Assembly (NCBI GenBank): GCA_900552655.1 | Contig: USAE01000002.1 | Span: forward strand, 1-59,020 | Source: an uncultured Clostridium sp. | GTDB lineage: Bacteria; Bacillota; Clostridia; TANB77; CAG-508 | Length of the DNA: 59,020 bases | Direction: 5' to 3' | Part shown: piece by piece, positions 4,923-21,737 of the stretch | How the letters are laid out: each line of letters begins with the position of its first letter | How positions within the stretch are numbered: the stretch's first letter is position 1 | Made by a program: the position numbers and the translations under genes | Notes under the pieces: model-generated | What the model was told of the DNA's origin: nothing | Database searches by the model: none | Seen by the model: the letters and a program-made list of their open reading frames with translations, nothing else

Positions 4923-7900
4923 ATGAAAAACAAGAGAATAATATTAATTTTAGTAATAATGTTTACTATATTAAATTTAGTAGGTGTAAATATATATGCA
5001 GAGTCAAATAATATAATAGAAGATCAAAATAACCTATTAGAAGAAAATATATTAAATAATAATATTATGCAAGAAGCAAATAATGTAAATGAAACAACAG
5101 TAGATAATACTATAGAATCAGAAGAGGAAAAAGATACAACTATAGAGAGTGAAGAAATTACAGAAGATACAACAACACAAGAAGAAGTAGAAAGCGACAT
5201 AGTACAAGAATACATTAATGAAAAAACAGTAAAGAATGGAGTTTATAGGTTTGCTTCATGTTTAGATTCAAATAAGGTAATAGAAGTAGCAGGAAGTAGT
5301 AAAGAAGATAATGCTGTAATAGATATATGGAACTATGGAAATGTACCAGCACAAAAATTTAATGTACAATATGAAAATGGATATTATAAAATAACAGCAA
5401 GACATAGTGGTAAAAGCCTAGCAGTAAAAGATGGAATAATTAAAGAAGGAAGCCAAATAGTTCAAGAAACATACAAAGGACTAGATTCACAAAAATGGAC
5501 TATAAGAGATAGTAAAATAAATGGATTAATAATTTCACCATTATCCAATCCAGACTTATTAATAACAGTAAAAGGAAATGTTTTAAATGGAGCAAAAATT
5601 GTTTTAGGAAAAGCAGAAAAAAATAATAACCAAATGTTTTATTTCTTTAACGAAAATGAAGCTGAAAGAACTGTAAAAAACGGTGTATATAAATTGGCTA
5701 TAGGTGCAGATTCTAGCAAAGTAATAGAAGTAGCAGGAAGCAGTAAAGAAGATAATTCTATAGTAGATATATGGAACTATGGTAATGTACCAGCACAAAA
5801 ATTTAATGTACAATATGAAGATGGATATTATAAGATAACAGCAAGACATACAGGAAAAAGTTTAACTATTAAAAATGGAACAGTACAAGAAGGAACAGAA
5901 ATAGTACAGTCAACATATGAAGGATTAGATACACAAAAATGGATAATAAAAGATAGTAGAATAAATGGACTAGTAATATCATCACTAGCTAATCCAGAAT
6001 TAGCAATAACTGTATCAGGAAATATAGAAAATGGTTCTAAAATAGTATTAGGAAAAAATAATAATAGTAATAACCAAATGATTTACTTTTTAAATGAAAG
6101 TAATTCAGAAAAAACAGTATCAAATGGAAAATACCAACTGTTAATTGGGGCAAGCCAAGAAAAATCTATAGAAGTAGCAGGAAGCAGTAAGGAAGATAAT
6201 GCAAAAGTAGATATATGGGACTATGGGCATGTAGCGGCTCAACAATTTAATATAGAATATGTAGAAGAAGGATACTATAAAATAACAGCAAGTCACACAG
6301 GTAAAAGTTTAACTGCTAAAAATGGAACAGTACAAGAAGGAACAGAAATAGTACAATCAACATATGCTGGGTTAGACACGCAAAAGTGGTTAATAAAAGA
6401 TAGTGGCATAAATGGTCTTACAATATCTTCAATGGTGAAGCCAAACTTAGCATTTACTATAGACGGAAAAATAAATAATGGTGATAAAATCGTTTTAAAG
6501 AATTTAGAAAAAAACAATAATCAAATGTTTTATTTTATTAAAACAGTAGAAACAAAACAAACGGTTAAAAATAATCTTTATAAAATATTAGTAGGAGCAA
6601 ATGCAAATAAATCTATAGAAGTAGCAGGAAGTAGTATAGAAAACAATGCAAAAATGGATATATGGGATTTTGGAAATTCAAGAGCACAGAAATTTAAGGT
6701 AGAATATGTTGATGGTTATTACAAAATAATAGCATCACATAGTAATAAAAGTTTAACTGTTAAAGAAAATAAAATTCAAAATGGAATAGAGATAGTGCAA
6801 GATGATTATAGAGGAGATTTTAGCCAAAAATGGACCATAAGAGATAGCAAAATAAATGGACTAATTATATCACCTTTAACAAGACCAGATTTAGCAATAA
6901 CTATAGAAAACAGAATTGAAAATGGTTCTAAGCTTATATTAACATCTTTACAAAAAAATGATAGACAAATGTTCTACTTTTATACTACAAATATAGGAAT
7001 TAATATAGATTCTAATAAATATCCTGGAGTAGCAGAGGCAGTAGATAATTTGACAAGCAAACATCCAAATTGGGAATTTGAAGTGTTATATACAGGTCTA
7101 GACTTTTACACCGCAGTTCAGGGAGAATACGAATATGATAATAGAAAAGCAAATTTAGTATATACTCCAACATATAAAGGGGATTGGATTGCGCCAAACC
7201 CATATGTTAGTGGAACTTGGGCATCAGCTTCATATAATGGAATTGCATATTTTATGGACCCAAGAAACTTTTTAAATGAAGTAGATGCTTTCCAATTTGT
7301 AGATTTAGCAGATTATGCAAACAGTGGTGCAACATTGGCATCTATACAATACCAAGTAAATGGAACTTTTTTAAATAACTTTGCAGAAGATGTTAGAGTT
7401 TCATGTGAAAGACAAAATGTAAACCCTTACTATATAATCGCAAGATTATTCCAAGAACAAGGAAAAGATGGTTCTGCTACAATTTATATGGATGGTGGAG
7501 ATGGAAAATTATATTTTAATCCATTTAATATAGGTGCAGTAGTTGGAAATGATGTTGCAACAGCCTTAGCTAAAGCTAAAGCTATGGGATGGGATAGCAT
7601 GCAAAAAGGTATAGAAGGCGGAATAAAATTTGTAAAAGAAGGATATCTAGATGCAAAACAAAATACACTATATTTAAATAAGTTTGATGTAAATCCAAAT
7701 AGTCCAGGTGGCTTCTATACACATCAATATATGCAAAACTTATCTGCAGCATATAGTGAAGCGCGTATATTTAGAGGAGCATATGTAGATACAGGAACAT
7801 TAGATAATAAAATTAAATTTATTATACCAGTATATGAAAATATGCCTCAAACACCAGCACCTAAGCCAACAGGAGAAGGTGGTTCAACAGAACCAGATGG

Positions 7901-9032: not shown

Positions 9033-9797
9033 ATGCAAAAAAAATATTATATAATTATTGCAGTAATTTTAATAATTATTATATTACTTTTTGTTTTTAT
9101 AAATAGTAAAGATGAGAAAAATATAATAAATAATATTGAAAATAATAATATAGAAAATATTTCGAATTTAGAAAAAAACGAAATAAAGAATATAATAGAA
9201 CAAGTATCAGAAGATGAACTAAAAGATATAAAAGAATTTCAAAACAGTATATCTTCGGTAGGAAACCCCAATATTTATAAGATAGAAGAAGAACATGATG
9301 GAAGAAAAATATTACAAATAAAACCAGAAGTGCAGTATGTAGTAGCTTTAGCTGGAATAGTAAAAAATGATATTCCAACAGAAGAGGAAGTTTACACTTT
9401 ATTAGAACAAGCACCAAGACATAATGGCATTTGGATAGAGAAAAATTCTAGAGAAGACTTTATGGTCTTACTACAAGAAAATAATATTAACAATTTTAGC
9501 ATAAATAAAAATGGATATTTAGAAAGCAATAAGAAAGATATACAAACAGAACAAGAAAAACAATTAAAAGAAATGATAGACTCAAACAAATTGTATATAA
9601 TAGATATGTCTGGAAAAACATATCAAAGAGATTATTTAACAGGTGAAATTGTAGAATATCCATTCGAAGATATGGATCCATACCAAACAATAGAGCCATA
9701 TAAAATAGAAAATAGTGCTATATTAGCGATAACCTCTAATAAAGAGAATAAGTTAGAGCAAAAAGAAATATTAGATGCAATTTTACAAAATAGGTAA
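9033..9797 (+). CDS. N-terminally membrane-anchored hypothetical protein
   Basis: 254-aa ORF with RBS AAGGAGAA and one N-terminal TM helix. No motif recognised. Last gene before the terminator of the hydrolase operon. Confidence 0.5.
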   Translation: MQKKYYIIIAVILIIIILLFVFINSKDEKNIINNIENNNIENISNLEKNEIKNIIEQVSEDELKDIKEFQNSISSVGNPNIYKIEEEHDGRKILQIKPEVQYVVALAGIVKNDIPTEEEVYTLLEQAPRHNGIWIEKNSREDFMVLLQENNINNFSINKNGYLESNKKDIQTEQEKQLKEMIDSNKLYIIDMSGKTYQRDYLTGEIVEYPFEDMDPYQTIEPYKIENSAILAITSNKENKLEQKEILDAILQNR

Positions 9798-9802
9798 GAA
9801 TA

Positions 9803-9850
9803 AAATTAAGCTATTATTTATTATAAAATATTAGCTTAATTTATTTTTTT
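9803..9850 (+). terminator. Rho-independent terminator
   Basis: AAATTAAGCTA (9803-9813), a loop, TAGCTTAATTT (9832-9842), then ATTTTTTT. Confidence 0.7.
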
Positions 9851-9911
9851 CTTGTAAAAGTTGCTATATAATGGTAAGATATAAGCAAATTAATAATAGT
9901 AGGTGAAAAAT

Positions 9912-10862
9912 ATGGAAAATATTAAAATTTTTGCTTGTAGTAAATATGCAGAAGAATTTACTAAAGAAATTTGTGATTATCTAAAACTTCCAATGGGAAA
10001 AATAAATGCGATGAAGTTTAAAAATGATAATAATTTTGTACAAATTTTAGAAACAGTAAGAGAAAAAGATGTTTACTTAGTACAAAGTAATGTACCTCCA
10101 GTAAACGAAAGAATAATGGAATTATTAATAACGATAGATGCAGTAAAAAGAGCTTCAGCAGGTAAAATAAATGTTGTTTTACCATATTATATATATTCAC
10201 GTTCAGATAAAAAAGATCAACCAAGAGTACCAATAACAGCAAAGTTAATAGCAGAGTTATTAGAAGCTGCAGGTGCAACTAGAGTTATTACTTGCGACTT
10301 ACATAACCCAGCAATACAAGCATATTTTAACAATATAAATTGTGATAGGCTTTCAGCCGAAAGACTTTTAGAAGACTATTTTTTGAATAAGAAATTAGAG
10401 AATATGGTTATTGTTGCGACAGATGCAGGTAGTTCTAAAAAAGCATATAAGTATTCAGAATTTTTTAATTGTCCTATAGCAATGCTAGATAAAAGAAGAG
10501 ATGGAAATAATGATAAAGCTATAGGTACAACAATTATTGGTGATGTAAAAGATAAAAACGCAATTATATTTGATGACGAAATTGACACAGCTGGTTCTAT
10601 GATGGAAACAGTAAGAGTACTAAAAGAGTTTGGAGCAAAAGCCATTTATGCAGGTTGCACACACGGAGTTCTTTCTGGTCCAGCTATAGAAAGAATACAA
10701 AATTCTCCTATAGAAGAACTTGTAATTACAAACACTATACCATTAACAGAATCTAAAAAAATAGAAAAAATTAAAGTTGTTTCTATAGCTCCATTATTTG
10801 CAGAAACAATTAGGCATTTAAACGAAAAAAGGCCATTAGGTGAGCTATTAAAAAGAAAGTAG
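9912..10862 (+). CDS. prs: Ribose-phosphate pyrophosphokinase
   Basis: RBS AGGTG 6 nt before ATG 9912. Motifs DLHNPAIQAYF, VATDAGSSKKA and IIFDDEIDTAGS (PRPP loop). Confidence 0.9.
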   Translation: MENIKIFACSKYAEEFTKEICDYLKLPMGKINAMKFKNDNNFVQILETVREKDVYLVQSNVPPVNERIMELLITIDAVKRASAGKINVVLPYYIYSRSDKKDQPRVPITAKLIAELLEAAGATRVITCDLHNPAIQAYFNNINCDRLSAERLLEDYFLNKKLENMVIVATDAGSSKKAYKYSEFFNCPIAMLDKRRDGNNDKAIGTTIIGDVKDKNAIIFDDEIDTAGSMMETVRVLKEFGAKAIYAGCTHGVLSGPAIERIQNSPIEELVITNTIPLTESKKIEKIKVVSIAPLFAETIRHLNEKRPLGELLKRK

Positions 10863-14038: not shown

Positions 14039-15518
14039 GTGAAAGAGAAAACAAAAGCAAGATTAATAGATATTGCTGTTTTTTGTATAGCAATATTATT
14101 GTTTTTAGCTACAGTGCTACCAAGGAATTTAGCTAATTTAGACGAAATATGGAATTTTAACTTTGCAAGAAATATTGCTAATGGCTTAATTCCATATAAA
14201 GACTTTAATATGTTACAAACACCTTTACTGCCATTTATACTTCGGTGGTATTTTTAAAATATTTGGCCAAGAATTATTTGTTATGAGAATAGTATCTGCT
14301 GTATTAGGAGCAGGGATAATTTTTATATCATATAAAATTCTTAAAGAGCTAAAACTAAATACAAAATGGTCAATTCTAACATTAATTTTATTGTTTTTAT
14401 TTATATCAGATAGTTTTTATTTAGATTATAATTATGTAATATTATTTATAACTTTACTTATCATCTTTTTAGAAACTAAATATAAAAATTATAGTAAAAA
14501 ATATAATTTTCTAATAGGAATATTAGCAGGAAGTACAATACTATTTAAACAAAGTACAGGTGTAATAATATGTGCAATAACAGCTTTGTATTTAGCATTA
14601 GAAGATAGAAACAAAGAAGTATTAAAAGCTATAATATACAGAGTAATTGGAATTATAGTTCCTGGAATAATTTTTACTATATATTTAATTTGTACAAATT
14701 CTTTAATGGACTTTATAGATTATTGTGTTTTAGGAATTGGTACATTTACCAATAATGTATCATATATGAAATTATTACAAGGAAAAGATTTAGAAGCTTT
14801 TTTAGGAGTAGTAACACCAATTACATTCTTAATTTTATTTATTGAAATTATAATAAATATAAAGAATAAGAAGATAAAAGAAAATAAAAACAAGTTAATA
14901 TTATTTGTGTTTGCTTTAGCACAATTTACAGTTGTGTACCCAATAGCAGACGAGATACATTTTAAAATAGCGGTATTCCCAATATTTTTAGTGATGTTAT
15001 ATTACATATTTAAAGAAATCCAAGAAATAAAAAATATAAAAATTTCTATTTTTATAGAGCATTTTATGAATATAATAACAATATCTTTGGTAGGAATGCT
15101 AATATTAAGTGGAATTAATGACATATTTATATATACACAAACAGAAAAGTCAGTATTAAAGCATTTTAGTAATATTCCAATATCAAATACGTTGCAAGAA
15201 AGAATTTTAGAAGTAAATAAATATATAGAAGACGAAGAAAGAGATGTATATATTTTGGATTCGGAAGCAGCTGTATATATGATACCATTAGATAAATATA
15301 ATAAAGACTTTGATATGTTTTTAAGAGGAAATTTAGGTGCAAAAGGTGAAGAAGGACAAATAGAAAAAATAAAAGAAATGAACAACACAGTGTTGTTAAT
15401 AAAAAATGAAAAAATACCATTAAATTGGCAAACACCTAAAGAAGTAATAGAATATGTAAAAAATAATTTAGAAAAAATAGGTACAATAAACTTTTTTGAT
15501 ATATATATATCAGAGTAA
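14039..15518 (+). pseudogene. ArnT/PMT-like GT-C membrane glycosyltransferase split by a +1 frameshift near 14240
   Basis: The 72-aa ORF 14039-14257 ends ...LQTPLLPFILRWYF*. The next frame is open from 14190 and reads ...FGGIFKIFGQELFVMRIVSAVLG into ORF 14283-15518. Together they give one typical GT-C N-terminus (DE..W motif, first loop, FG..xx.RxxSA). Confidence 0.7.
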
Positions 15519-15522
15519 TAAT

Positions 15523-17121
15523 ATGCAAGTGAAAGGGAAAAAATACCAAATGGAAAAAAATGGAAAAGCAAGCACGATTATAAAAAATATTATATTAGTA
15601 TTTGCAACTATTACATTTATAGCTGTTTTAATCTTGAATTTTATATACAATGCAAATACCGACAAACTTAGTGCAGTTGAAATAGAATATGTAAAAATTA
15701 TTAATTTGATTATAAGTATTTTTATTGCCATAACTATATTAATTGCTTCACATTATTTAAATAAAATTAAATTTAGCAAAATTGCAAAAACTGCTATAAT
15801 AGTTACTTTAATTTTTATATATGTAATTGTACAAATTAGATGGTCAAACACAACAATTGGAAGACCATCTGGTGACCAACAAATAATATATAACATGGCA
15901 AAAAGTTATATAGAAGGAAATAATGAAAATTTATATAAATCAGAATATTTAGCTAAAAATCCACAACAACGAAGTTTGCTAGTTATGTATATTTTAATAA
16001 TGAAAGTGGTAAATAGCACAGATTATGTATGGCTATATTTAGCTAATATTTTGGCAAATGTACTTTCTATATTTGCATTATGTCTAATATTAAAGAAACT
16101 ATCGGAGAAATATAGTGTTAATAAAGCATTATTTGCTATTTTAACATTAACTTTTATACCAATGATATTATTATGTAATTTTATATATGGTGACATCATT
16201 GGATTAGCATTTATTTTGTTTTCTGTATATTTTATAATAGAATATGCGAAAAAGAATAAGAAAATATTTGGAATAATTTCTGCAATTTTAGCATCTATCG
16301 CAATGATGTTTAGAATGAATTACATTATATTTGTTATAGCTATGGTAATATATATTATTTTAAACTTTAAAAAGGAAAATATTTTTAAGCAGATAATACA
16401 TATTATAATATTTATAGCTATAATACTTATTCCATATAAATTGGTTGGAGCATATGTGGCAGAAAAACTAGATTTAGACAAACAAGCAACAATACCTACA
16501 AGCAGTTATTTATATATGTCACTTTATGATGGAGAAAGAGGTGCAGGGTGGTATAGCCAAGAAGCAATGAAAGTAGCACAAACAGATGTGAAGAATGCAA
16601 AAAATTATTATCCACCAATATTAAAAGAGAGAGTAAAATATTTAGTTACACATCCTTCAGAAGGTTTTAGATTTTACAAAAATAAGATTGTTTCTATGTG
16701 GACAGATAATGCCTTCCAATGTATATTTTATAATTTACCAGTTCATTTAGATGGTATGCCTAAAGAATTATATGATAGCGCAATAAACGAGAATGAATTT
16801 TATAGTAATTATTTTGTAGAAAAAGGCTCAAAACAAATAAAGATATATATGAAAGGAATAGTACTTTTAGTATTTTCATTAAGCTTAGTAAATTTATTAA
16901 AGTATAAAAAAGAATTATCTAATGAAGCAATTTTAATGATAACAATATTTTTAGGAGGATTTTTCTTCCACGTATTATGGGAAGCAAAATCAAGATATGT
17001 AATTCCATATTTTGTAGTTCTTATTCCTATTGCGTGTATAAGTCTTAATAAAGAGATATCAGATTTTTCTATTATAAAAAGAATAAAAAATATTTTTAGA
17101 AAAAAGGAGAAAGTAAAATGA
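15523..17121 (+). CDS. Polytopic GT-C-like membrane glycosyltransferase
   Basis: About 530-aa ORF with at least 10 hydrophobic helices, adjacent to other GT-C genes. The start is uncertain (TTG 15496, ATG 15523 or ATG 15550). Confidence 0.55.
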   Translation: MQVKGKKYQMEKNGKASTIIKNIILVFATITFIAVLILNFIYNANTDKLSAVEIEYVKIINLIISIFIAITILIASHYLNKIKFSKIAKTAIIVTLIFIYVIVQIRWSNTTIGRPSGDQQIIYNMAKSYIEGNNENLYKSEYLAKNPQQRSLLVMYILIMKVVNSTDYVWLYLANILANVLSIFALCLILKKLSEKYSVNKALFAILTLTFIPMILLCNFIYGDIIGLAFILFSVYFIIEYAKKNKKIFGIISAILASIAMMFRMNYIIFVIAMVIYIILNFKKENIFKQIIHIIIFIAIILIPYKLVGAYVAEKLDLDKQATIPTSSYLYMSLYDGERGAGWYSQEAMKVAQTDVKNAKNYYPPILKERVKYLVTHPSEGFRFYKNKIVSMWTDNAFQCIFYNLPVHLDGMPKELYDSAINENEFYSNYFVEKGSKQIKIYMKGIVLLVFSLSLVNLLKYKKELSNEAILMITIFLGGFFFHVLWEAKSRYVIPYFVVLIPIACISLNKEISDFSIIKRIKNIFRKKEKVK

Positions 17122-17681
17122 AATTGTTAATGCATACTTGTTGTGCACCTTGTAGTGTATATTGTATAGATTCATTAAGAAAGGAAAATATAGAACCGAC
17201 AGTATATTGGTATAACCCAAATATACACCCATATATGGAATACAAGGCAAGAAGAGATACATTAAAAGAATATACTAAAAGCATAAATGTTGAAGCTATA
17301 TTTGAAGAGGAATACGGACTAGATGAGTTTTGCAAAAATGCAATAGGGGATCTTAAAAATAGATGCCAAAATTATTGCTATAAAGTTAGATTGGAACAAA
17401 CAGCAAAATTTGCAAAAGAACATGGTTTTGACACAATTTCTACAACTCTTTTAGTAAGTCCTTACCAAAAACATGAAATTTTAAAAGAACAAGGCGAAGA
17501 AATTGCAAAAAAATATGGTCTGAATTTTTTATATAGAGATTTTAGAGTTGGCTTTAGAAAGGGTCAAAATAAAGCAAGAGAATTAGGTTTGTATATGCAA
17601 AAATATTGTGGGTGTGTGTTTTCTGAGGAGGATCGTTATAGCAAGCAGATTGAGAAGGATAAAAAAAGAAACATTAAATAG
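17118..17681 (+). CDS. queH: Epoxyqueuosine reductase QueH (DUF208)
   Basis: LLMHTCCAPCS, WYNPNIHPYMEY, STTLLVSPYQKHE and QKYCGCVFSE. The ATGA start overlaps the preceding stop. Confidence 0.85.
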   Translation: MKLLMHTCCAPCSVYCIDSLRKENIEPTVYWYNPNIHPYMEYKARRDTLKEYTKSINVEAIFEEEYGLDEFCKNAIGDLKNRCQNYCYKVRLEQTAKFAKEHGFDTISTTLLVSPYQKHEILKEQGEEIAKKYGLNFLYRDFRVGFRKGQNKARELGLYMQKYCGCVFSEEDRYSKQIEKDKKRNIK

Positions 17682-17704
17682 TAATTTGCTGTTAGGAGGA
17701 TGCT

Positions 17705-18109
17705 ATGAAATTTGTAAAATATGATAATAAAAGTTTAATTAATTTTTATAGCGAAAATGGACTAGAATTTGATGAAAACAAATGTTATTTTGGAATTAAT
17801 GTCGAATCATTTGCTTTGTTAGAAAATGAAAAAATTATTGGAGCAGTGTCTATTTCAATTTATAAAGAAAAAAGTTTTATTGAGGCACTAGCAGTAGATA
17901 AAGAATATAGAAATAAAGGATATGGAAAACTATTAATAGAAAAAGCAATAGAAAAACTAGAAAAACCAGTATATACAATTTCAAAAGTAGATAAATTCTA
18001 TTTAAAAAACGGATTTGTATATGATAATTCAGACTTAATAGATAAAGAGTGTAAAACCTGTGATGAATATAATGTTACTTGTTTTCCGAGAGTTGTAGTA
18101 TATAAATAG
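17705..18109 (+). CDS. GNAT-family N-acetyltransferase (small, Cys-rich C-terminus)
   Basis: AVDKEYRNKGYGKLLIEKA is the acetyl-CoA-binding motif A (Q/RxxGxG/A). RBS AGGAGG. Confidence 0.75.
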   Translation: MKFVKYDNKSLINFYSENGLEFDENKCYFGINVESFALLENEKIIGAVSISIYKEKSFIEALAVDKEYRNKGYGKLLIEKAIEKLEKPVYTISKVDKFYLKNGFVYDNSDLIDKECKTCDEYNVTCFPRVVVYK

Positions 18110-18161
18110 TTACACAAATTACAAGTTATAGAGATATAGAAAGGGAGATGAGAGTGTAAAT

Positions 18162-19178
18162 ATGAATCCAATAGAAAATTTAAAAGATTTAATCATATAT
18201 CAAAGTCAAAATAATGAAAATATATCTGTAGAAGTTTTATATGACAATGAAGATTTTTGGTTAACACAAAAGTCAATGGCTAAGTTATTCAGTGTGGCAG
18301 AAAATAATATAACATATCATTTACAAAATATATTTAAAACAGGAGAATTAGAAGAAAATCGAACTACTCAAAAAATTAGAGTAGTTCAAAATGAAGGAAC
18401 CAGAAAAGTTTCAAGAGAAGTAAACTTTTACAGTTTAGATGCAATAATTGCTGTAGGGTATAGAGTAAACTCAAAACAAGCAACAGATTTTAGAATATGG
18501 GCAACTAATACATTAAAAGAATACATAAAAAAGGGATTTGTATTAAATGATGAATTATTAAAAAATGGACCAAAATTTGGAAAAGATTACTTTAAAGAAC
18601 TTTTAGAACGTATTCGTTCAATTAGGACAAGTGAACGTAGAATATGGCAACAGATAACAGATATATTTGCAGAATGTAGTATTGATTATGATAAAGATTC
18701 AGAGATAACACATCAATTTTATGCAATGATACAAAATAAATTTCATTATGCAATTACAGGAAATACAGCAGCAGAAATTATATATATAAAAGCAGACCAT
18801 ACCAAGGATAATATGGGATTAACAACTTGGAAAAATTCACCAGAAGGAAGAATATTAAAATCAGATGTGATGATTGCTAAAAATTATTTAGAAGAAAAAC
18901 AAATAAAGCGATTAGAGCGAGCAGTAACTGGATATTTTGATTATATAGAGGACTTGGTGGAAAGAGAAAATACATTCACAATGGAGGAATTTTCTAAAAG
19001 TGTTAATGAATTTTTAGAGTTTAGAAAATATGATATTTTAAAAGATAATGGAAAAATTTCTAGAAAAATGGCAGAAGAAAAAGCAGAAAAGGAGTATAAT
19101 GAATTTAATAAAACTCAAAAAATTATTTCTGACTTTGATAAATTATTATTGGAAACAAAAAGATTAAATAATAAATAA
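18162..19178 (+). CDS. RhuM-family protein (Virulence_RhuM)
   Basis: FWLTQKSMAKLF...NITYHLQNIF..GEL, YSLDAIIAVGYRVNSKQATDFRIWAT and ERRIWQQITDIF match my recollection of the RhuM family. Confidence 0.7.
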   Translation: MNPIENLKDLIIYQSQNNENISVEVLYDNEDFWLTQKSMAKLFSVAENNITYHLQNIFKTGELEENRTTQKIRVVQNEGTRKVSREVNFYSLDAIIAVGYRVNSKQATDFRIWATNTLKEYIKKGFVLNDELLKNGPKFGKDYFKELLERIRSIRTSERRIWQQITDIFAECSIDYDKDSEITHQFYAMIQNKFHYAITGNTAAEIIYIKADHTKDNMGLTTWKNSPEGRILKSDVMIAKNYLEEKQIKRLERAVTGYFDYIEDLVERENTFTMEEFSKSVNEFLEFRKYDILKDNGKISRKMAEEKAEKEYNEFNKTQKIISDFDKLLLETKRLNNK

Positions 19179-19264
19179 ATTTGTGGTCATAATGTGTTAT
19201 TACAGAGGCGGATAGGTACAGTAAGCAAATTGAGAGAGATAAAGCAAAAAACATGAATAAGTAA
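19177..19264 (+). repeat. Decayed duplicate of the queH 3' end (copy R1)
   Basis: AAATTTGTGG...GAGGCGGATAGGTACAGTAAGCAAATTGAGAGAGATAAAGC aligns with queH 17601-17684 (AAATATTGTGG...GAGGAGGATCGTTATAGCAAGCAGATTGAGAAGGATAAAAA). It reads RYSKQIERDKAKNMNK* against queH DRYSKQIEKDKKRNIK*. Confidence 0.7.
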
Positions 19265-19337
19265 ATAAATAATAAGTTGTCGATGAAATTAAATTTTGTT
19301 TTTTAAACAAAAAGTAGAAAATGAAGGAAAGATATGC

Positions 19338-20039
19338 ATGATACATAAAATGAAATTAAGTGAAAGTACATTCGAAAGAATAAAAAATGGAACTAAAACA
19401 ATTGAATTTAGATTAGATAATGAAAAAAGACAGCAAATAAAAGTTGGAAACAAAATTGAATTTTCAAAATTACCAGATTTACAAGAAAAGTTGTTAGTAG
19501 CTGTTACTGAGTTATATAAAGAAGATACTTTTGAAAATTTGTTTAGAAAACTATATACAGATGAAGAGGAAATAAATAAAAGAACTAAATCAATGGAGCA
19601 ATACTATTCACACGAAAAAGAGAAGGAATATGGAGTTTTAGGTATAAAAATAGAGTTAATTAGTAATAACTTTAGATATACATATAACAAACTAGTAAGA
19701 GATAAAATTCCAGAAAATATAGATAGCGAGCCGGGGAGAAAAAGCAAATATAGAATTCTTAATGATAGTGAATATTTAACTGAATTAAATAAAAAGGTCT
19801 TGGAAGAAGCTAATGAATTTATAGAAGAAAATAGTATTGAAGAACTTGGTGATTTAATGGAAGTTATAAATTCAATAATGAAATTAAAAGGTTATAAAAT
19901 GGAAGATGTACATAAAGCAATGAAAGCTAAGGCTGATAAAAAAGGAACTTTTGATAATAAAATATATTTAGAATATATTGATGAAGATAAAAGAAATATA
20001 GAGGAAGAAAAGGAACTAAATAAAGAATTTAGAAAGTAA
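19338..20039 (+). CDS. Fusion protein: N-terminal ASCH domain plus C-terminal all-alpha (MazG/PRA-PH-like) NTP pyrophosphohydrolase
   Basis: RBS GAAGGAAAG before ATG 19338. The N-terminal half (MKLSESTFERIKNGTKTIEFRLDNEKRQQIKVGNKIEF...EYGVLGIKIE) follows the ASCH pattern. The C-terminal half (YNKLVRDKIPENI...LEEANEF...EELGDLMEVI) follows the house-cleaning NTP-PPase pattern. Confidence 0.65.
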   Translation: MIHKMKLSESTFERIKNGTKTIEFRLDNEKRQQIKVGNKIEFSKLPDLQEKLLVAVTELYKEDTFENLFRKLYTDEEEINKRTKSMEQYYSHEKEKEYGVLGIKIELISNNFRYTYNKLVRDKIPENIDSEPGRKSKYRILNDSEYLTELNKKVLEEANEFIEENSIEELGDLMEVINSIMKLKGYKMEDVHKAMKAKADKKGTFDNKIYLEYIDEDKRNIEEEKELNKEFRK

Positions 20040-20080
20040 TAACAATTATATCTTGTAATGATATAGAATTAGAGCATTTT

Positions 20081-20213
20081 ATGTTAAATATGAAAAACAA
20101 AAATACAAAAAGAGATTTTTAGATTAATAGCAAAAAATAAAAATATTACGCAAAAAGAAATGTCAGAAGAACTTAATATAACGAAGAGAACTATAAAAAG
20201 AATAAATTTGTAG
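20081..20213 (+). pseudogene. Remnant of an HTH regulator gene, frameshifted and truncated
   Basis: MLNMKNKNTKRDF* in one frame; the adjacent frame reads KEIFRLIAKNKNITQKEMSEELNITKRTIKRINL*, a typical wHTH segment that stops mid-domain. Confidence 0.5.
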
Positions 20214-20352
20214 GAATAATGTTTTATTGTAAAGGAGTATATTTGTTTTCAGAAGCCGAAAAAAGAATATACAAAGTTTAATAAAAATCAAAAGATTGTT
20301 TCAGATTTTGATAAGTTGCTTATTAAGGCAAATTGAGAACGATAAAAAGTAG
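20204..20352 (+). repeat. Composite remnant (copy R2): queH 3'-end fragments interrupted by a frameshifted RhuM 3'-end fragment
   Basis: 20204-20236 (AAATTTGTAGGAATAATGTTTTATTGTAAAGG) resembles R1 (AAATTTGTGGTCATAATGTGTTATTACAGAGG). 20255-20330 aligns with RhuM 19083-19158 (FNKNQKIVSDFDKLL against FNKTQKIISDFDKLL). 20326-20352 (CAAATTGAGAACGATAAAAAG) resembles the queH end. Confidence 0.6.
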
Positions 20353-20360
20353 GGAAATAT

Positions 20361-20783
20361 ATGATAAGAAAATTTGAAAAAAAAGATATAAATGATGTAA
20401 TGATAATATGGAAAAATGAGAATATAAAAGCCCATCAATTTATAGAAAGGGAATATTGGGAAAACAATTATAATTATGTAAAAGAAATTTTACCAAATGC
20501 AGAAATATATGTTTATGTTATTGAAAATCATATAGTAGGATTTATAGGATTAAACCAAAATTATATTGAAGGAATTTTTATAGATGCACATAGTCAAAGT
20601 AAGGGTATAGGAACTTTATTATTAAATAAAGTAAAAGAAGATAGGAATACTCTAACGTTAAGCGTATATAAGAAAAACGTAAATGCTATTAAATTTTACA
20701 AAAAAAATAATTTTATTATTACAAGTGAAAGCATAGATAAAGATACAAATGAGATAGAATATATCATGACTTGGGTTAAGTAA
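20361..20783 (+). CDS. GNAT-family N-acetyltransferase
   Basis: IFIDAHSQSKGIGTLLLNKV is motif A; also KKNVNAIKFYKKNNF. Confidence 0.8.
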   Translation: MIRKFEKKDINDVMIIWKNENIKAHQFIEREYWENNYNYVKEILPNAEIYVYVIENHIVGFIGLNQNYIEGIFIDAHSQSKGIGTLLLNKVKEDRNTLTLSVYKKNVNAIKFYKKNNFIITSESIDKDTNEIEYIMTWVK

Positions 20784-21691: not shown

Positions 21692-21727
21692 AAAGCAGTT
21701 ATTATAGTTTAATAACTGCTTTTAGTT
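21692..21727. terminator. Bidirectional terminator between convergent genes
   Basis: AAGCAGTTATT (21693-21703), a 7-nt loop, AATAACTGCTT (21711-21721), flanked by an A-run and a T-run. Confidence 0.75.
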
Positions 21728-21737
21728 AATGTATATT

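Follow-up and report, generated by a model that had tools for sequence, protein, structure and literature searches.

Why degenerate copies of the 3′ end of one gene recur downstream of it, with intact genes lying between the copies, is the question raised by the queH locus of an uncultured Clostridium sp. (assembly GCA_900552655.1, contig USAE01000002.1). The stretch analyzed, positions 1 to 59,020 of the forward strand of the contig and referred to here as the window, is AT-rich (26.5% GC). In it, queH (17118-17681, + strand), which encodes the epoxyqueuosine reductase QueH (Pfam QueH, 5.7e-61), is followed on the + strand by genes for a GNAT acetyltransferase (GNAT1), a RhuM-family protein, an ASCH-domain protein, a second GNAT acetyltransferase (GNAT2), and a DUF4230 protein, with ddh on the opposite strand. 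Our comparisons indicate that the 3′ end of queH, the target gene, is probably the attachment site of a family of integrative and probably conjugative elements with serine recombinases, and that the window shows the unoccupied state of an array at this site. Serial insertion at one hot spot, which an earlier note on this DNA had proposed from the letters of the window, is backed by ~30 independent junctions at the F/SEEDRY codons of queH in related genomes.

Local alignments of the repeats were scored against 500 dinucleotide-preserving shuffles, and all scored far above the shuffles except the direct match of the third tail copy. The queH tail (17615-17684) aligned with 19193-19264 at a score of 55, against 19.0 +/- 3.1 in the shuffles (maximum 37; 0/500), and a DNA profile of the tail from 59 species matched 19181-19247 (E=3e-6); the degenerate queH end reported directly behind the RhuM gene is therefore real. 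This copy, scar 1 (19179-19264, + strand), still reads ...EADRYSKQIERDKAKNMNK before a stop codon. It has the 'TGGTCATAATG' indel in common with L080 (11572-11636), where it stands behind a different RhuM subtype, and among all loci compared its 'TTGTGGTCATAATG' junction type occurs only in the window's species and L080. The second region of queH-end copies (20194-20351), in the same direct orientation and parted from the first by cargo without a recombinase, is a composite. It overlaps the stump of a regulator gene (20100-20213, +), the 3′ part of a gene with HATPase_c_4 and HTH domains, whose in-frame stretch is 20100-20210 (HTH_24, 7.6e-7); an HTH remnant had been claimed here and is confirmed. 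Then come a pseudo-attachment fragment like the first half of scar 1 (20194-20242, +; 19173-19214 against 20201-20242, score 37, shuffle maximum 33, 0/500), a 34-nt remnant of the N-terminal coding part of cas9 (20230-20263, +), a frameshifted RhuM 3′ end (20252-20330, +; score 60 against ~19080-19150, 0/500 shuffles), and, directly 5′ of GNAT2, a fragment of the second half of the queH tail (20327-20351, +) that reads ..QIENDKK before a stop. The RhuM fragment, also real, is nearest to the subtype-A genes (RhuM-A) of L078 and L073 (84-85% identity), not to the window's own RhuM. Matched directly to the queH tail, the last fragment (20327-20348) scored 32 (2/500 shuffles), which is marginal alone, and it is backed by its position and its match to scar 1. 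The second queH copy that the earlier note placed at 20204-20352 thus holds up for the piece resembling 19173-19214 and is marginal in its direct tail match, and the region is more composite than claimed, as it also takes in the cas9 remnant. An integron was rejected as the source of the repeats: the window has no IntI or other integrase, and what is repeated is a coding 3′ end and not an attC-like palindrome.

A scan with one genome per species gave 80 related loci, all in metagenome-assembled genomes of uncultured gut Clostridia. The RuvB...queH synteny is kept in these loci and the DNA behind queH is very variable, with open reading frames (ORFs) falling into 229 protein clusters, of which 184 are singletons; the usual downstream anchor is DNA polymerase I. 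The tail profile had eight extra matches with E<1 in the 80 loci, all eight downstream of queH on the same strand, and none upstream of queH or on the opposite strand. The C-terminal tail of QueH, CGCVFSEEDRY-SKQIEKDK..., is conserved in related species; in the window it reads ...CGCVFSEEDRYSKQIEKDKKRNIK before the stop, and the motif is kept in the 59 species with an unfused QueH. In six GTDB species, an orphan queH tail is directly preceded by a conserved arm of 183 nt with stops in all frames, which ends ...AAATAGGAAnAG where the queH frame resumes (F/SEEDRY). Scanning with the arm pattern added 20 copies from metagenome contigs and none from viral contigs (0 matches), on which ground a phage origin was discarded. 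The junction of arm and tail falls at position 60 of the tail profile in the six GTDB species, the 20 metagenome loci, L111-L115, and L127, making up the ~30 junctions mentioned above. The displaced tails carry each species' own peculiarities and the arm is common to all, which indicates that the insertions at queH were independent of each other. Examples of the arm are found at L043 13563-13745, L048 11585-11765, L025 12944-13123, and L127 5280-5460. Its conservation is about equal to that of coding DNA; it starts with ~45 nt like the junction of fused-type queH (EE.RYYNRN) and a GGTTATATATTATAACC hairpin, a terminator and a TGnTATAAT promoter stand upstream of it in the recombinase-bearing copies, and some copies retain just the last 70-100 nt.

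Which enzymes could have made these junctions is suggested by the genes next to the arm. In L099 and L105, two adjacent 560-aa genes with Resolvase, Recombinase, Zn_ribbon_recom, and DUF4368 domains lie directly 5′ of it; by their domain content, they are a pair of large serine recombinases (LSRs), LSR1 and LSR2. The LSR1-LSR2 pair is also found directly 5′ of the arm in L111-L116 and L127. In L111-L116, where the recombinases are close homologues, the module runs from a sigma-like gene and small ORFs through DUF6870, LSR1, and LSR2 to the arm and the displaced tail, with optional cargo before the arm. On one 1.85-Mb contig, whose host genes upstream match those of the window, 52.5 kb separate a QueH-GNAT gene from the arm (ERZ28754359 contig_4608, record 1,192,700-1,245,250); the first genes of this insert are ParA/ParB, a 1369-aa SpaA-type surface protein, and RadC, and ends with a sigma-like gene, DUF6870, LSR1, LSR2, cargo, arm, and displaced tail, its gene content having been read from its outer 10-12 kb. 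Element sizes range from 18 to 52 kb, and ParA/ParB genes lie directly behind queH in three species representatives. Within 7-10 kb downstream of queH, no recombinase was found in the 80 species because the elements are longer than these flanks. The window likewise encodes no recombinase, as the earlier note had observed; the pair turned up in relatives and in L127, a strain of the window's own species. Having no recombinase of its own, the window is a target site with remnants and not itself an element. A more distant pair of large serine recombinases (34-40% identical) was also seen upstream of queH in L026 (2274-5304).

The exactness with which the arm meets the reading frame could also be explained by an intron-like insert, the 183-nt arm being the 3′ part of a ribozyme and the spliced mRNA joining the QueH core to the downstream tail. 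The final G of the arm sits exactly where the frame resumes, and the downstream tails stay open and look constrained as protein. However, the 3′ end of the upstream queH is complete and in frame throughout, each downstream tail is a lineage-specific copy of the tail of its own species, which accounts for the apparent constraint, and recombinase genes adjoin the arm. Moreover, Rfam searches with the arm found nothing at either gathering or permissive thresholds, and RNAalifold on six arm sequences gave no consensus structure. Splicing is, in our judgment, extremely improbable. A guide-RNA-like arm, by analogy with omega-RNA or bridge-RNA, was rejected as well, as no TnpB, IscB, or IS110 gene accompanies it consistently; L091, L092, L103, L105, and L127 do have IS110, IS91, IS3, and IS200 genes, which are incidental insertions.

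Arrays in which a newer arrival stands in front of an older one are also present. L105 (8096-11288) and L098 (7874-11068) are 97.9% identical over a stretch starting at the SEE junction, upstream of which lies the QueH core in L098 and LSR2 with the arm in L105; a shared stretch with differing left neighbours is indicative that a newer LSR element landed before an older unit (tandem accretion). The older unit, without a recombinase, is composed of the 3′ part of a GNAT gene, a PnuC-like gene, a RhuM-like gene, and an arm; behind it lies another GNAT 3′ part, older again and still open. L105 and L091 have two arms each, and arrays with two arms and two displaced 3′ ends were seen in L105, L091, and L098. 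Unrelated insertion sequences in the arrays show further secondary insertions into decaying elements: L103 (2030-4039, orientation as read) has a split tyrosine recombinase with an IS91-like gene, and others lie at L092 1493-2704 and L105 71-1476, the kinds including IS110-family and IS3-like transposases.

The window's own species shows the site both empty and occupied. We infer the attachment site (attB) of the element at 17596-17640 (+ strand; AAATATTGTGGGTGTGTGTTTTCTGAGGAGGATCGTTAT), within which homology with the occupied sister strains ends at 17625-17630: identity to the window lasts until 17630 in L132 and until 17629 in L137, and L127 is 99.9% identical to the window from 17625 on. 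A partial dyad, AATAT...ATATT, surrounds the junction at the intact queH site. In L127, the sigma-like gene, DUF6870, LSR1, LSR2, and the arm are followed by the window's tail and then by GNAT1-RhuM-ASCH-GNAT2, the tail-profile match (5460-5503) lying directly behind the arm; in other words, the current queH tail of the window (tail_A, 17625-17684, +) is the sequence that L127 has as a displaced tail on the right-hand side of its element. L132 and L122 are the two ends of one contig, and the left end of an element within this species is known from L132. Their ~18-kb element starts at window 17630, makes QueH a 344-aa QueH-GNAT fusion, and carries ParA/ParB, a SpaA-type protein, a 2320-aa SNF2/LPD16 protein, an Erm-family methylase, and an ANT(6) adenylyltransferase. 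Its right end has been lost together with the window's tail and GNAT1, and the right junction in L122 lies 50 nt upstream of RhuM, an example of an off-site junction made by deletion. The two resistance genes (L122 3732-4646 and 5039-5896) adjoin the SNF2/LPD16 protein; the Erm-family 23S rRNA methylase scored 209.7 bits, just below the cutoff of 212 of the broad Erm model, and the ANT(6) aminoglycoside adenylyltransferase 454 bits, over its cutoff.

The occupied alleles in the species are thus L127 and L132/L122, and the empty allele is that of the window and of most look-up contexts. Looking up the exact QueH protein returned the window's gene order with its scars in 10/10 contexts shown (24 of 1049 index blocks read); this look-up is blind to strains with a swapped QueH tail. 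Contexts with the window's order and no element made up 8/10 of those shown for RhuM and 8/10 for RuvB. An identical order with scars in all relatives, which the earlier note had named as speaking against its reading, is thus what the ten QueH contexts show, and variable content came to light through the RhuM and RuvB look-ups.

L137, which diverges from the window at 17629 into a different fused QueH C-terminus, accounts for much of the second scar. It holds an OLD-family nuclease, another RhuM, an intact 274-aa HATPase/HTH gene, a Cas9 N-terminal fragment, two CRISPR-like repeats, and an arm fragment abutting a 5′-truncated GNAT2, with homology to the window resuming at 20468; GNAT1, RhuM-A, and the ASCH fusion are missing, yet the flanks are kept. 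The HTH stump of the window is 97% identical to L137 18713-18814, which is part of the 274-aa gene, and the region of the pseudo-attachment fragment (20194-20242) is 95% identical to L137 18889-18932, the piece that comes behind that gene corresponding to window 20194-20237. The cas9 remnant has 100% identity to L137 19034-19067, within a 94-aa ORF that matches TIGR01865 Cas9 (3e-23; L137 18939-19307 region) and is followed by two 35-nt CRISPR-like repeats spaced 66 nt. This order of HTH gene, pseudo-attachment fragment, and cas9 fragment explains the composition of the second scar. Judged by these remnants, a type II CRISPR-Cas locus was once in the array and is now almost wholly deleted.

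We consider the following course of events likely. The F/SEEDRY codons of queH (window ~17596-17640) would serve as the chromosomal attachment site in this AT-rich clade of gut Clostridia. The element has two adjacent large serine recombinases beside its right end and the 183-nt arm as its terminus, and with its left end it brings a new 3′ end for queH, which may be a short tail or one extended by an in-frame GNAT domain. Integration would leave QueH intact and shift the former 3′ end downstream as an orphan copy. Newer elements would land again at the queH-proximal site and older ones would lose their recombinases and most of their genes by deletion, the outcome being leftover cargo genes parted by decaying queH tails. 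Read in this way, the array of the window would comprise tail_A, GNAT1, and RhuM, then scar 1, the ASCH fusion, and the HTH stump, and finally the pseudo-attachment fragment, the cas9 crumb, the RhuM stump, the tail crumb, and GNAT2; each scar would stem from such an integration, and the intact genes between the scars would be leftovers of earlier arrivals.

Several observations weigh against this course of events. Neither the recombinases nor the 183-nt arm were found in the window, where the scars carry indels and no element arm. Scar 1 takes in ~22 nt left of the crossover point, i.e., on the queH side, and its left half scores 24-26 against the left half of attB and <=16 against the element arms; being closer to the former, it is not a clean right attachment junction (attR) and resembles a whole pseudo-attB. 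Its irregular boundary calls for a further recombination step or one of another kind. When attB is set beside the right junctions, the crossover narrows to a point within (C)AGAGGA. There are also irregular duplications, one of ~220 nt of queH joined to a truncated gene in L042 and one of ~240 nt of a GNAT end in L041. Furthermore, that the recombinases catalyse integration and that the elements conjugate are both inferred. Lastly, RhuM-A has a synonymous-codon difference of 0.10-0.18 in three species pairs, compared with ~0.4 for RuvB and queH, and the segments in common between species consist of the ORF with 20-40 nt upstream and 0-80 nt downstream; low divergence over an ORF-sized segment is indicative that RhuM-A passed between species alone, and this bare spread looks like homologous or illegitimate recombination and not like the work of an integrase.

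Such irregularities would be expected if the turnover were independent of a recombinase, with queH and its pseudo-tails acting as homology arms, or with illegitimate recombination following DNA uptake, the scars being by-products. Movement of RhuM-A into differing contexts, the attB-left half retained in scar 1, the second queH copy of L042 with its truncated neighbour, the right junction of L122 off the attachment site, and duplication lengths varying from ~70-90 nt (window, L048) to the ~220 nt of L042 and ~240 nt of L041 all agree with it. Nevertheless, it leaves unexplained ~30 junctions at the same nucleotides beside an arm and a recombinase pair, as well as the breaks between empty and occupied alleles at 17625-17630 in the window's species. 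We therefore find it rather unlikely, though possible, as the source of the arrays, and best viewed as a secondary process acting on arrays made by integration. Homologous and illegitimate recombination do reshape the arrays, and they may have produced scar 1 directly.

Under integration by the recombinase pair, the element supplies part of the host protein, and fused forms of QueH bear on this. The QueH ORF runs in frame into a C-terminal domain, mostly GNAT, in 17/76 species, and a second, unrelated type of fused C-terminus occurs in L031, L063, L075, and L137. QueH-GNAT fusions were located at L041 1922-2956, L004 1946-3025, L117 10001-11050, and L132 14138-15172, and a search for such fusions retrieved 3597 proteins from the database at E<=1e-60. 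The part coding for GNAT belongs to the element side of the crossover in L117 and L132, which implies that integration itself makes the fusion. The idea that GNAT1 was the original partner of queH and corresponds to the fused GNAT domain was rejected, as the similarity is only distant (E ~1e-4). A bolder reading would have integration deliberately rewire QueH by swapping its C-terminal tail for element-encoded alternatives, including the in-frame GNAT, so that the element-borne domain is expressed only when integrated; the 183-nt arm, with its own TGnTATAAT promoter in the LSR copies, would then be a functional RNA or a regulatory site for excision or integration and not a mere flank of the attachment site. 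This combination we hold to be doubtful and quite unlikely.

What, then, are the genes between the scars? The earlier note took GNAT1, RhuM, the ASCH-pyrophosphatase fusion, and GNAT2 as its candidate for one undescribed module, possibly for defence or abortive infection. They are adjacent and on the same strand, and most strains of the species keep them in one order. From queH to a hairpin at 21692-21722, the spaces between the four genes included, the + strand has no predicted intrinsic terminator, and promoter-like matches are no more frequent than chance; co-transcription with queH is thereby possible. In L127, an IS200-type Y1 transposase gene (9704-10204) lies between a 37-aa ORF and ddh, the insertion corresponding to window ~21727-21736, at or adjoining this bidirectional terminator hairpin. 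RhuM belongs to a candidate defence family, and the site gathers other defence-type genes in relatives, namely PDC-S02, an OLD-family nuclease, Fic, zeta toxin, and the cas9 remnant. Against a single module, scars of different ages part the four genes, RhuM moves alone between species, GNAT1 and GNAT2 have no homologues in the 80 loci, and the ASCH domain is found elsewhere with another partner and other neighbours. Only RhuM and the ASCH domain of the four recur in the 80 species. L122 is without GNAT1, L137 dispenses with three of the four with its flanks kept, and PADLOC recognises RhuM alone, as a single-gene candidate. Going by this gene content, the four genes are not one system, and the proposed module, whose members do not co-occur elsewhere, is in our view very unlikely. 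The accompanying statement that the cargo matches no named system does not stand either, as RhuM already forms the PADLOC candidate family PDC-S05.

The RhuM gene of the window (18162-19178, +, subtype A) matches Pfam Virulence_RhuM (1.3e-107), and the PADLOC model PDLC04868 (PDC-S05) covers its residues 8-333 (1.7e-152). A PDC-S05 representative in E. coli lowered the plating of T7 and T5 ~1000-fold and of T4 ~10-fold (bioRxiv 10.1101/2024.09.26.614923), and RhuM was earlier proposed as a toxin domain in restriction-modification loci (PMC3710099). From its match to these models, the window's RhuM is a candidate for a defence role, although, unlike those in restriction-modification operons, it resides in an array at an integration site. 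RhuM is the commonest first gene behind queH in the related loci, where three subtypes share 41-89% identity. Subtype A was seen in L008, L050, L073, L078, L004, and L043, together with subtype C in L050, and a subtype-C fragment directly behind the subtype-A gene of L008 (13516-13579) mirrors the RhuM stump of the second scar. Defence- or toxin-type genes occupy the same site at L137 15110-16942, L041 3008-4033, L004 5652-6593, and L042 9004-9618, the types being an OLD-family TOPRIM/AAA nuclease, a DUF1016-type nuclease (PADLOC PDC-S02), a PezT-like zeta toxin, and Fic proteins.

The third gene (19338-20039, +) codes for an ASCH domain (Pfam ASCH 1.7e-8; PDB 2z0t/1xne/1s04) fused to a small domain that is putatively of the all-alpha NTP-pyrophosphatase type. 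Of the fusion claimed earlier, the ASCH half is secure, and the C-terminal half has support at the superfamily level through its relatives, the window's domain itself having no Pfam, PHROG, or PDB match. Among 59 relatives of this half, 4-8 each gave sub-threshold matches to MazG-like, dUTPase_2, PRA-PH, and MazG, and the relatives keep E44, E45, E48, E57, and D60 invariant (EExxE...ExxD pattern). The partner domain is usually a stand-alone protein of ~105-129 aa, with 5438 relatives and no Pfam family; a single-sequence AlphaFold2 model of the fusion was unusable (pLDDT 39). Relatives of the ASCH domain with 78-83% identity lie at L041 4580-5488, L044 11801-12139, and L066 3069-3242, that of L041 (78%) being fused to a Nudix domain. 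The ASCH domain hence pairs with different partners of nucleotide-pyrophosphatase type, MazG-like-looking in the window and Nudix in L041. GNAT1 (17705-18109, +; Pfam Acetyltransf_1 8e-13), the first gene behind the tail, and GNAT2 (20361-20783, +; Pfam), which is PRK10562-like (NCBIfam, 113 bits, with a cutoff of 125), have no close relatives in the 80 loci.

Variation is also found on the other side of queH. Two PMT_2-type membrane glycosyltransferase-like genes between RuvB and queH (window 14283-17121) are variable, and many related species are without both, RuvB being then directly followed by queH. Within the species (L082, L088, L126, and L139 compared), the second of these genes codes for 495 or 532 aa depending on the strain; in L139 it is split into 342 + 184 aa, and the version of L090 is 91% identical to that of the window.

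Within the literature searched, no paper was found that treats queH together with serine recombinases, and in this literature queH is a previously unreported integration hot spot, with a two-recombinase family of integrative elements tied to it. The hosts are an abundant, uncultured lineage of gut Clostridia with small genomes, the exact QueH protein being present in 1049 index blocks. With an Erm-family methylase and ANT(6) on one conspecific element, the site matters for how resistance genes spread in the gut. The natural series of empty, occupied, truncated, and accreted alleles is useful for studying the decay of integrative elements into small defence islets without visible mobility genes, and the junctions would offer putative attB and attP sites on which two new large serine recombinases may act. 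In essence, serine-recombinase integrative elements with a decayed accretion array are a known process at a new target, queH, and no new kind of system; the replacement of the QueH C-terminus by the element, the conservation of the 183-nt arm, and the resistance genes on a conspecific element are worth notice.

Among known systems, a pair of large serine recombinases, CcrA/CcrB, moves the staphylococcal cassette chromosome (SCC) elements and composite islands that staphylococci carry at the rlmH (orfX) 3′ end. Like the queH elements, they have two paralogous large serine recombinases and hit the 3′ end of an RNA-modification gene without inactivating it; they also form tandem arrays with recombinase-less pseudo-elements between copies of the site, and carry resistance and defence cargo. 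In contrast, queH is a different target gene and the hosts are unrelated. The queH elements are also larger (18-52 kb) and have partition genes and a surface adhesin, suggesting conjugation. Tn4451/Tn5397-type elements of Clostridia (PMC5704250) share large serine recombinases with a DUF4368 C-terminal region, Firmicutes hosts, and a sigma-like/HTH regulatory module beside the recombinase. These have one recombinase, 2-bp crossover repeats, and a target that is often disrupted, whereas the queH element has two recombinases, one fixed target, and a carried replacement of the 3′ end of that target.

Integration, decay to cis-mobilizable elements (CIMEs), and accretion at an attachment site in a gene end follow a published model (PMC5704250), exemplified by ICESt1/ICESt3 at fda in Streptococcus thermophilus, where integrative and conjugative elements (ICEs) and integrative and mobilizable elements (IMEs) accrete with decayed CIMEs (PMC5704250, PMC5812530). 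Those arrays resemble the one described here in that integration into a gene 3′ end is accompanied by restoration of the gene by the element, old elements lose their integration genes while new ones use the attachment site at the gene end, and the resulting cargo array is parted by repeats derived from that site. However, the ICESt1/ICESt3 systems rely on tyrosine integrases and identical direct repeats of tens of bp, and the queH element on a pair of large serine recombinases. The 'repeat' at queH is a whole replacement 3′ end of 60 to ~570 nt, bringing another allele or an added GNAT domain, with queH a new target and uncultured gut Clostridia new hosts.

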